From Torpedo marmorata (Eukaryota): a stretch of DNA of 64,000 nucleotides. Position 1 is the first letter of the stretch. Each line of letters begins with the position of its first letter. The translations under genes and the position numbers were made by a program. The notes beneath the pieces are model-generated. The model was not told the origin of the DNA. It did no database searches and saw nothing but the letters and a program-made list of their open reading frames with translations. Location: contig OZ360241.1 in the NCBI GenBank assembly GCA_977017645.1, forward strand, positions 35,836,001 through 35,900,000, written 5' to 3'. Of this stretch, positions 54,146 through 56,999 are shown piece after piece.

Positions 54146-54530
54146 TATGAACTGAATGTAGGTATATACAACCAGCTTTGGTAGACAGACTCTTAAAAGA
54201 TAATGTCTTTGGACAGTTTAACTGTACTTTTCTCCATACTCTACATTTTGTTCTATTAACGCAACACCCTGCACTTTTGTTTTATTCTTGCACTACCTGC
54301 TGTACTTGAGTATAGGTTGACTTGCCTGGATAGCATGCAAAGCAAAGCTTTTCTCTATATCTTGGAACACATCACAATGAATAATTCAATTTTTTTCAGC
54401 ACTGAATTTATTAATTACCGATAGCAGCGTAGACAGTGGCGGATTAACTACCACCCGGGCCCTAGGCTGAGCTTTAGTAAGGCCCCCTCTGACCTTGTCC
54501 CTCTGCCCCACGGCCCCCACCCTTCGTCCG

Positions 54531-54705
54531 ATGCTGTGACTGTGGTAAAACACAGAAATGCTGGAGGAACTCAGCCGGTCTCATAGTGTCCACAGGAGGT
54601 AAAGATACCTTGAAGAAGGGCTCAGGCCCGAAACGTCGGTAATACATCTTTATCTCCTACGGACGCTGTGAGACCTGCTGAGTTCCCCCAGCATTGTGAT
54701 TTTAC
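54531..54705. mobile_element. Palindromic Penelope-derived element nested in hAT copy A
   Basis: AATGCTGGAGGAACTCAGC / GCTGAGTTCCCCCAGCATT arms with hammerhead-like core at 54606-54641. Confidence 0.75.
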
Positions 54706-55071
54706 AACTCAATTTACAAACACGAGTTCGGCTTCTCCCTTTCGTTTTGCTGAGATTTCATTCAAAACAATTTATACATTACACGTTTTCTACAACTGTC
54801 ACACGAATAATAACAGACCAAATATCCCTGCAGCGAAGGAACGAAGTCAGCTTTCATTTATTAATAAAACTTGATTATGCAAAATCACAGAAAAACAATG
54901 ATTAAAAACGTAGACATATTAAAGTTTAAACAATCGCTATCACCTTTGGTTGTGTAATTTGAAGAGACATCACTGATTTAGTTTAATATTATGTAAATCC
55001 AACAATTAATTTAATGTGCAACCTTTTTTGCTGACCCTGCCTATTTCAATGAAATGTTAAAGCGGTGGGCC

Positions 55072-55172
55072 CGTCCCCCGTCCCGCTGGGCAGGGAGGAG
55101 GTCGCCGTCCCCCGTCCCGCTGGGTAGGGAGAGGTCGCCGTCCCCGTCCCGCTGGGCAGGGGGAGGTCGCCG
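55072..55172. repeat. About 3 copies of a 30-31 bp GC-rich tandem repeat inside hAT copy A
   Basis: CGTCCCC(C)GTCCCGCTGGG(C/T)AGGG..AGGTCGC repeated. Confidence 0.85.
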
Positions 55173-55573
55173 TGCCGCTCAGGCTGGGTGGGCGACCGCG
55201 GAAACCCACCGCGGCCCCGGGAGTAGACACGGGGAGGAAGGGCGGATAGTGGAGCGATACCAGTAACATAGAATGCCAGTTGATGAGTTGATTTCGGAGT
55301 TAAGATTGGAAATGTTAAACCAACAATAGAAAGATTAAAAAGTTGCAACTGCAGAATCCAAATTGGATTACAGTATTGATTTCCTTACTTCAACCTTTGT
55401 GTAGTAATTGTGAACAGTGTCAGAAATAGTCTAATAAACAAATTCAAACCAAACAAGCCTTGAAATCATGAACAAGAACCTAAACAATTAATCAGAGATA
55501 AGAAAGCAGCTTTCGCACAAACTGTGTTAGCAGGTGAATAGCCTTCAAATGATTATGGCAGTTGCTGACTTAC

Positions 55574-55953
55574 CTTCCTTCTGCTTCTGGTAGTCAGCTC
55601 CAAAGATTTCGTAGGGTGTTGAGCCGGCCCTCGATGCCGGGATGATGCCATTGGTGGCCGTGGCAGCCGTCGCCATGGCTAGCCCGGCTTCTGCAGCCCC
55701 TCCTCTGGCGTACATGCACTGCAGCTCCCTGGCCTCGTTCTCTTCTTGCGCTTGCTGCTGCCGGAGAGCCACCTGTGCAGCCATGACCCGTTGCCTCTCG
55801 GCGATCAGCATGCACTTGGCACATATGCAGTCCCTCCAGCGGCATAAGCGCTTGTGACCCTTGAACGCCAAGACCACGCCATGGTTACGACAGCGGGCGT
55901 GGTTCGGGGGTAACGCTCGGCGGCGGCTCTGAGCTGCAGGACAGGAGGCAGAC
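55574..55953 (-). pseudogene. Captured DMRTA-type (DMRTA1/DMRT4 or DMRTA2/DMRT5) DM-domain exon fragment, frameshifted
   Basis: [17 protein letters not shown] / frameshift / [87 protein letters not shown] (donor at plus strand 55568-55573); 5'-truncated, no start codon, no downstream DMA exon in the window. Confidence 0.9.
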
Positions 55954-56102
55954 CTCAGACTCACTTTTTCATTGTTTGCGCCAACTTTTCGTGACGTGTG
56001 ACGGGTGGTGACGTAATAATGTCGTCATGGAGATGGTAAACATAAGCTCGCAGGGAGTCGTGGCTGCAGCCTGCAGTACGAAGTAAGTCCCTAAAAGTAT
56101 TA

Positions 56103-56331
56103 AAAAACATAAATGCTGCAGAAACTCAGCAGGTCAAACAGTGTCTTTTATGTAGCAAAGATAGAAATACATAATCGACGTTTCGGGCTTGAGATGAAGG
56201 GCTCAAGCCCGAAACGTCGATTATGTATTTCTACCTTTGCTACATAAAAGACACTGTTTGACCTGCTGAGTTTCTCCAGCATTTGTGTTTTTTACTTCAA
56301 CCACGGTGTCTACAGATTTTCGTGTTTTACT
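56103..56331. mobile_element. Palindromic Penelope-derived element nested in hAT copy A
   Basis: Near-perfect foldback about 56105-56292; 15-bp TSD TCCCTAAAAGTATTA at 56088-56102 and 56332-56346. Confidence 0.85.
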
Positions 56332-56999
56332 TCCCTAAAAGTATTACTTGTTTACTTCTGAATGTTTATATGTTTGGAACCTAATTTAGATAACAAAATA
56401 GTTTTTGTAATGAAAAAAATATATACAAAAGTACTGAAAAACTCAGGCAGCTCGGGCCCCTTCAGCCTCGTCAGCCTAATGGTTAATCCGCCACTGAGCG
56501 TAGACAAACACATTTAATGGACCGTTAAGCCACACACTTCTACTTTTCAATCTATGACTCTTTAAATATGTCTTTTACGCAAAATATAATTTCCTGCAAA
56601 AGTGCAATGGGTATGTTCGCGAAAATAATATTGTAGACTTCAATGGAAATTTACAGGGTATATTTCCTTTCAAATGGAGGGCGAAATCTTCCTGGAAAAT
56701 ATGTGTGCATTAGTGACACACGCCAGAATTGATATATAAAAATCAAATAATAAATAGTGAGGATTCAATAATGTGCCATGAGGTAATATTGCCAGGATCT
56801 GCCTCTTGCTTCAACACAAGAAGAAGTTATTGGCTGGGGTATTAGTTACCTGTTAACTTCACTGAAAGGAAGATAAGATTAAGAATGTACAGGAGTGAGA
56901 AGAAGTCAGTATTGGTTGGTACAGTATATTGGTAAGAAAGTAGCTAACGCAGTCATTATGAATGGGCTGAATTGACAAATGTTATTGAGAAGAGATAAG

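Follow-up and report, generated by a model that had tools for sequence, protein, structure and literature searches.

The stretch of DNA analyzed here (the window, 64,000 nucleotides) very probably holds a broken member of a non-autonomous family of hAT transposons, one that has placed part of exon 1 and intron 1 of DMRTA1 at 75 sites in the genome, most likely after a single capture at the DNA level, with the copies now likely to be decaying passengers. A second, unrelated family of terminal inverted repeat (TIR) elements carries a piece of DMRT1.

The element in the window

The element is 2,063 bp long and ends in perfect 15-bp TIRs at 54434-54448 (plus strand) and 56482-56496 (minus strand), which are its 3' and 5' ends in transposase orientation, and these are flanked by an 8-bp target site duplication (TSD), AGCGTAGA, at 54426-54433 and 56497-56504. 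A profile search finds a DM domain on the minus strand (PF00751, E 2.5e-20), which also matches the human DMRT1 structure 4yj0 (E 1e-23). A preliminary description, made from the letters alone, had reported a DM exon within one intact hAT insertion about 44 kb from TCF12, and the TSD, the TIRs, the length, and the position of the exon inside a single insertion are as it described. The ends are not a chance pairing, because the TIR 15-mer has 4,569 exact matches in the genome (none for the reversed control) and 51 sister copies have TSDs of their own. The hAT origin also stands, as the copies have 8-bp TSDs that differ from site to site and short TIRs in common with an element that encodes a hAT transposase (L174; of the two TIRs, L176 has the left one). 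"Intact" applies to the ends and not to the coding content, since six-frame translation and comparison with L174 and L176 found no transposase frame in the element. A TCF12-like gene on the same strand has the start of its first coding exon near 10142, which is 44 kb from the element; the CpG island that adjoins this exon is about 41 kb from the copy, and there is no known upstream exon.

Inside the TIRs, the 3' arm (54449-55252, minus strand) is common to a DM-less sister non-autonomous family of 1.2-1.6 kb and marks subfamily A; it contains a hairpin repeat (54536-54712), a GC-rich 32-34-bp minisatellite (55076-55173), and an AT-rich stretch. Next comes the captured portion of DMRTA1 intron 1, its first ~320 bp with the native GT donor kept (55253-55573, minus strand), and then the captured 3' part of exon 1 (55574-55933, minus strand), 360 nt that encode the DM domain and ~55 further residues and terminate in a G before a GTAAGT donor at 55574. 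At the capture junction (55934-55960, minus strand), a precursor-derived, acceptor-like pyrimidine tract ending in CAG abuts the DMRTA1 sequence. The 5' arm (55961-56481, minus strand) is that of a ~765-bp precursor, has short stretches that match sequence upstream of the transposase frame, and is interrupted by a 247-bp hairpin insertion (56097-56343) that most sisters lack. This insertion has 93-bp hairpin arms and comes from a very abundant repeat; the insertion-free form was seen in one sequencing run.

The exon in the window is free of stops, and its DM domain is not preceded by an in-frame ATG. Near 55899, a deletion of 7 bp takes out the zinc ligand Cys1, shifts the frame, and puts His at that position, leaving seven of the eight ligands that a functional DM domain has in one frame. 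The description was correct in calling the copy broken. The His at the first zinc position results from the deletion rather than from a substitution. His at the Cys1 position occurs in few copies and is consistent with CpG decay.

The captured gene

There are five DMA-domain matches in the genome, all on contigs C2 and C22 and each beside its own DM exon, and none on the window's contig. At C2:256.478 Mb, a DM exon and a DMA exon form an intact two-exon DMRTA1, the parent gene, and the TIR was not found in the surrounding 40 kb. The window element has 91% DNA identity to this gene over 689 bp, a match that begins within exon 1, crosses the donor, and extends into intron 1, compared to 76% over 180 bp for DMRTA2 of the same genome. 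The best match of the window copy among DMRTA1 proteins is that of skate at 88%, ahead of sharks, which suggests that the genome is that of a ray or skate. In a 17-row protein tree, where the split between DMRTA1 and DMRTA2 has support of 97/99, the copy falls on the DMRTA1 side. Judged by these comparisons, the cargo is DMRTA1 (DMRT4 lineage) rather than DMRTA2, and an ambiguity of the preliminary description is settled. Since the cargo runs from exon 1 through the donor into intron 1, capture occurred at the DNA level. The copies retain the exon-intron boundary and 320-630 bp of intron 1; exon 2 is absent, as are the first 40 codons of the parent, ATG included.

Copies in the genome and assembly of the element

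When assembly G000 (6.2 Gb) was searched for the DM exon, 150 of 194 candidates were scored and 135 matches were obtained. Among the 89 loci examined, 85 match the parent (59 in subfamily A, 16 in B, and 10 in C) and four do not; ~20 more weak C-like matches on small contigs lie outside the 89 loci. Subfamilies A and B together are 75 dispersed copies on 26 contigs. Both TIRs are present in 53 of them, and 51 of these 53 have a TSD with at most two mismatches (34 perfect), all different. Mobilization of the DM exon and the existence of a multi-copy family, both proposed in the preliminary description, are borne out by these counts. A genome scan for the junction motif gave 72 matches, 65 of which were already in the copy set; the scan added only seven DM-less precursors, and the set is thus close to complete. 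The C copies (L047-L054 and L105-L107 on C81, C82, C41, and small contigs) derive from a single badly broken copy that was multiplied along with its flanks within blocks of GC-rich satellite, and the ten examined are 97-98% alike. At L092 (G000:C53:50357000-50361300), two elements are adjoining or nested, and the DM piece has the opposite orientation to the TIR pair that the TSD bounds.

The family is also present beyond the G000 assembly, as the intron-to-transposon junction is bridged by contigs from coded organisms A, C, and D with more than 31 letters on each side (only 21 in E); four of 14 listed sequence runs were compared. Summed depth in organism A is 221-478 for the DM part and 9-11 for the flank, and in organism C 13-21 and 1.5-5. 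No empty-site joint at the window insertion was among the joints listed for the four runs, and one contig extends from the flank 27 letters into the element, below the 31-letter bar.

The empty precursor is ~765 bp long (764-773 bp in four of seven loci) and has the same arms as the loaded element, with both TIRs and a TSD in five of the seven. Subfamily B retains the first 343 and last ~145 bp of the precursor, and ~280 bp of the interior is replaced by ~1,030 bp of DMRTA1 (parent nt ~121-1148). Subfamily A, which includes the window copy, has ~720 bp of DMRTA1 ending at parent nt 837, beyond which is the 3' arm of the DM-less sister family. One common 5' junction is found in 83 of the 85 loci. 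Apparent microhomology to the parent is six of seven nt at the 5' junction, and none is clear at the 3' junction. A single DNA-level capture into the precursor is likely; it would have occurred by template switching at short microhomology during gap or fork repair, and a second template switch would have produced subfamily A from B. A hAT transposase acting in trans may then have spread the copies in one old burst. The copy tree (67 rows) has a star-like shape and weakly supported inner branches, as a single burst would give; the median end branch is 0.038 and that of the parent 0.021.

Transposase-bearing partners were found through a PF05699 (hAT dimerization) search. L174, 5,754 bp long, ends in the same TIRs, is flanked by a perfect TSD, and has a broken transposase with a PF05699 match. 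L176 has the left TIR and frames that match PF05699 and, below cut-off, DUF4371, and both transposases have stops or frameshifts. The hAT transposons with DUF4371 and a C-terminal dimerization domain have 15-bp TIRs, 8-bp TSDs, and ~70-bp ends in common with the window element, but encode a transposase, which the window element does not. We take these relatives to be of the Tip100/Zaphod-like group. Eight size-picked TIR pairs on C1 contained no hAT transposase frame and had only ends and repeats in common with the element. Eight loci with the same TIR (L108-L115) have only 50-70-bp ends in common and unrelated interiors, so the TIR family may hold further captured host pieces.

Decay and possible recruitment of the copies

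For 67 of the 75 A and B copies (six with large rearrangements and two recent duplicates were dropped), dN/dS is 0.91, with a bootstrap range of 0.79-1.05, and does not differ between the DM part and the tail; it is 0.92 for the DM part alone, a value for the group, single copies being underpowered. CpG transitions are at ~10% per site in the copies. Two inherited lesions are found in the DM region, a 7-bp deletion in 39 copies and a 4-bp insertion in 26, and one or the other is present in 51 of 75, so broken masters went on moving. The frameshifts would have arisen in master copies that continued transposing, in which case the DM protein was not needed. These patterns suggest that the copies are likely to decay close to neutrally as passengers.

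Recruitment of at least one copy, as a cassette exon or as a truncated DM gene resembling dm-W through the junction CAG and native donor, assumes the same origin and is very unlikely. The cargo does have the form of a cassette exon, its putative splice sites being the native donor and, ahead of the DM frame, the acceptor-like CAG: the junction AG is kept in 80 of 83 copies and the donor in most, the window-type exon of 360 nt is open and runs from phase 1 to phase 1, and the cargo is oriented in the sense of the transposase. However, the acceptor motif was already present in the empty precursor, and no in-frame ATG precedes the DM domain. The element's own ATG and a donor just 5' of the junction were considered as a start and rejected, as the ATG is followed by a stop and there is a 31-nt gap to the CAG. 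Four copies (L013 at C22:212.65 Mb, L014 at C11:125.37 Mb, L023 at C54:4.57 Mb, and L026 at C49:20.31 Mb) have a fully open exon and all eight ligands; in total, the DM domain is intact (all ligands, no stop or frameshift) in six of 24 lesion-free copies, against 7.6 expected in a neutral simulation, and each of the six has 4-7 changes in 62 residues. Another 11 copies, including that of the window, have the 7-bp deletion alone and keep an open DM frame, seven of eight ligands, and the donor.

In the 19 analyzable copies that are free of inherited frameshifts, dN/dS is 0.75 (0.60-0.96) and there are fewer replacement changes than in random sets (permutation p 0.003-0.008), a weak deficit that would favor recruitment. 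Counting distinct changes gives p 0.03 and singletons 0.20, and the deficit appears to reflect mostly, though perhaps not wholly, shared synonymous changes. Group-level dN/dS is compatible with one recently recruited copy, and, according to Tan 2021 (PMC8277862), some Pack-TIRs are transcribed as chimeras. Among the best 120 of 904 short DM proteins in databases, three of which were inspected as sequences, the top matches are ordinary exon-1 gene calls and no element-derived product was found. The earlier suggestion that sister copies might be alive has no support so far, given the near-neutral dN/dS, the number of intact domains and their changes, and the start codon left out of the capture.

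An origin of the copies as processed pseudogenes, or as segmental duplications of DMRTA1, with hAT ends nearby by coincidence, is extremely improbable. Duplication does hold for the satellite-associated group, whose flanks are 97-98% alike, and for a few close pairs; for the dispersed copies it is refuted by the 51 different TSDs adjoining TIRs, and the presence of intron 1 without exon 2 and the one junction common to the copies also stand against it. That the window contains the first exon of a genuine DMRTA gene flanked by unrelated hAT ends is barely conceivable despite the strong similarity to DMRTA1 proteins (88% to skate), as every DMA match is on another contig beside its own DM exon, the copy has lost Cys1 and the first 40 codons, and an intact, TIR-free parent with its DMA exon lies at G000:C2:256.47 Mb.

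A second family derived from DMRT1

Capture and spread by a TIR element is also seen for DMRT1. Weak DM matches at C42:69.69, C5:153.51, C47:41.65, and C2:47.18 Mb are 83-89% like DMRT1 exon 1 (C2:246.43 Mb), have breakpoints in common, contain intron repeats, and end before the last DM helix. The elements are 0.7-0.9 kb long with TIRs unrelated to those of the hAT family (L046, L102-L104, and L194-L222; for example, G000:C42:69686586-69687433). Both TIRs are present in 22 of the 29 loci examined and TA is found at both ends in 20; these TA-flanked ends suggest that the carrier is of the Tc1/mariner class. The TIR was not found in 28 kb at the parent DMRT1 region. Genome matches to a 28-base motif that spans the DMRT1 start codon number 4,182 with at most one mismatch (control 0), and 29 family loci were examined individually; the DMRT1 5' UTR and start are thus likely carried at over 4,000 sites. 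Most of the examined copies lack the DM part, and four keep most of the DM domain. L046 has the native ATG and a 199-codon frame, but Cys1 is replaced by Asn; a database search with the 199-aa frame gave 16 matches, the named ones all DMRT1. A forkhead control (60 matches, 82/82 candidates scored) gave no sign of dispersed amplification, so exon capture is not universal, although one control cannot show a preference for DMRT genes.

The sequences of both families give no sign of function. A bolder reading is that DMRT first exons are recurrent targets of DNA transposons, that two unrelated TIR families scattered DMRTA1 and DMRT1, and that at least one product is used, whether as a spliced DM exon, as a sex-chromosomal antagonist of truncated, dm-W-like form, or in the form of gonadal small RNAs that match the 5' end of DMRT1 and stem from thousands of copies; as a whole this is unlikely. 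The chance that some product of these families is functional is similarly slim.

Comparison with known systems

The window family has the TIR-free parent copy and the DNA-level capture that define Pack-TIRs, and has the features of a non-autonomous hAT element as well. In the main text of Tan 2021 (PMC8277862), hAT and Tc/mariner are the usual carriers of animal Pack-TIRs, and multicopy examples are only four cases (1.4%), one of them with three copies of a 291-bp UTR piece. Pack-hAT-N8_XT from Xenopus tropicalis and Ssk-FB4 from Drosophila, both described there (PMC8277862), resemble the window family in having a host fragment in a non-autonomous TIR element, a distant parent, and several TSDs, with microhomology at a breakpoint as a possible further parallel; unlike Ssk-FB4, the window family has no sign of protein or selection. 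The element class is therefore already known (Tan 2021, PMC8277862), but its scale and cargo here, 75 copies of a transcription-factor DNA-binding exon and a second family likely in thousands, were not found in print, and that main text contains neither "shark" nor "DMRT". The open literature, taken without Dfam/Repbase, subscription journals, or the Tan 2021 supplements, yielded no report of a DMRT-carrying transposon, and by a term search neither sharks nor pseudogenes nor transposons are mentioned in the text of bioRxiv 10.64898/2026.07.14.738559. Plant Pack-MULE and Pack-TYPE elements (PMC8903248; Pack-MULE via Tan 2021) are likewise reported as multicopy TIR elements with GC-rich gene fragments and stepwise exchange between sister elements; here the host is a vertebrate and the carriers are hAT and TA-flanked elements, not MULE or CACTA.

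The cargo belongs to a gene family that repeatedly gives rise to sex-determining genes by partial duplication, and the elements offer a concrete route for such duplicates together with a shortlist of loci. In medaka, dmrt1bY is a partial DMRT duplicate away from its parent and joined to transposon sequence. Unlike dm-W and dmrt1bY, the window family is not DMRT1-derived and shows no purifying selection on the DM domain (dN/dS 0.92). Xenopus laevis dm-W is also a partial DMRT duplicate off its parent and joined to transposon sequence, and to that extent the parallel drawn in the preliminary description stands; it is loose in that hAT-10 supplied the C-terminal exon 4 and, in the text of Hayashi 2022 (PMC9250109), is not shown to carry DM exons. 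By the same account (PMC9250109), dm-W is dmrt1-derived, single, sex-linked, and functional, whereas the window family is DMRTA1-derived and has no start codon. The DMRT1-derived family is closer in origin to dm-W (PMC9250109), but its DM domain is cut short at the end.

One genome retains a fully traceable vertebrate exon capture, with the parent, empty precursor, transposase partner, loaded element, and later recombinant, as well as two independent DMRT captures. Where multicopy animal Pack-TIRs had been known in a few copies, there are now tens, and the DMRT1 piece likely takes the number to thousands. The copies will be a source of error for DMRT annotation, PCR markers, and read mapping in the lineage. 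Without a working copy, the family represents a mechanism and a resource rather than a new gene.

Other DMRT and hAT loci

A diverged gene with DM and DMA domains (L039 and L035, G000:C2:256446544-256448268) lies 30 kb from DMRTA1 on the same strand and has an unusual residue at the last DM cysteine; we presume that it is possibly DMRT93B-like. A second three-gene DMRT cluster (L040-L042 and L034, G000:C22:158.07-158.18 Mb) mirrors the DMRT1-3-2 cluster of C2, and from their motifs we take its members to be DMRT2-like, DMRT3-like with a DMA domain, and a diverged third. At L101 (G000:C79:10330646-10330777), a lone partial DM domain is followed by a stop, and none of the nine DMRT loci compared matches it closely in DNA; it may belong to another DMRT gene as a split exon. 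Within L130-L155, at least 14 hAT dimerization-domain matches of similar score lie within ~4 Mb at G000:C47:95.4-99.7 Mb, a local amplification in which the TIR of the DMRTA1-carrying family is absent from the stretches examined. Four hAT-domain frames (L128, L129, L131, and L141), with this TIR not nearby, are open for 660-725 codons and are possibly domesticated transposases or intact elements of other families.
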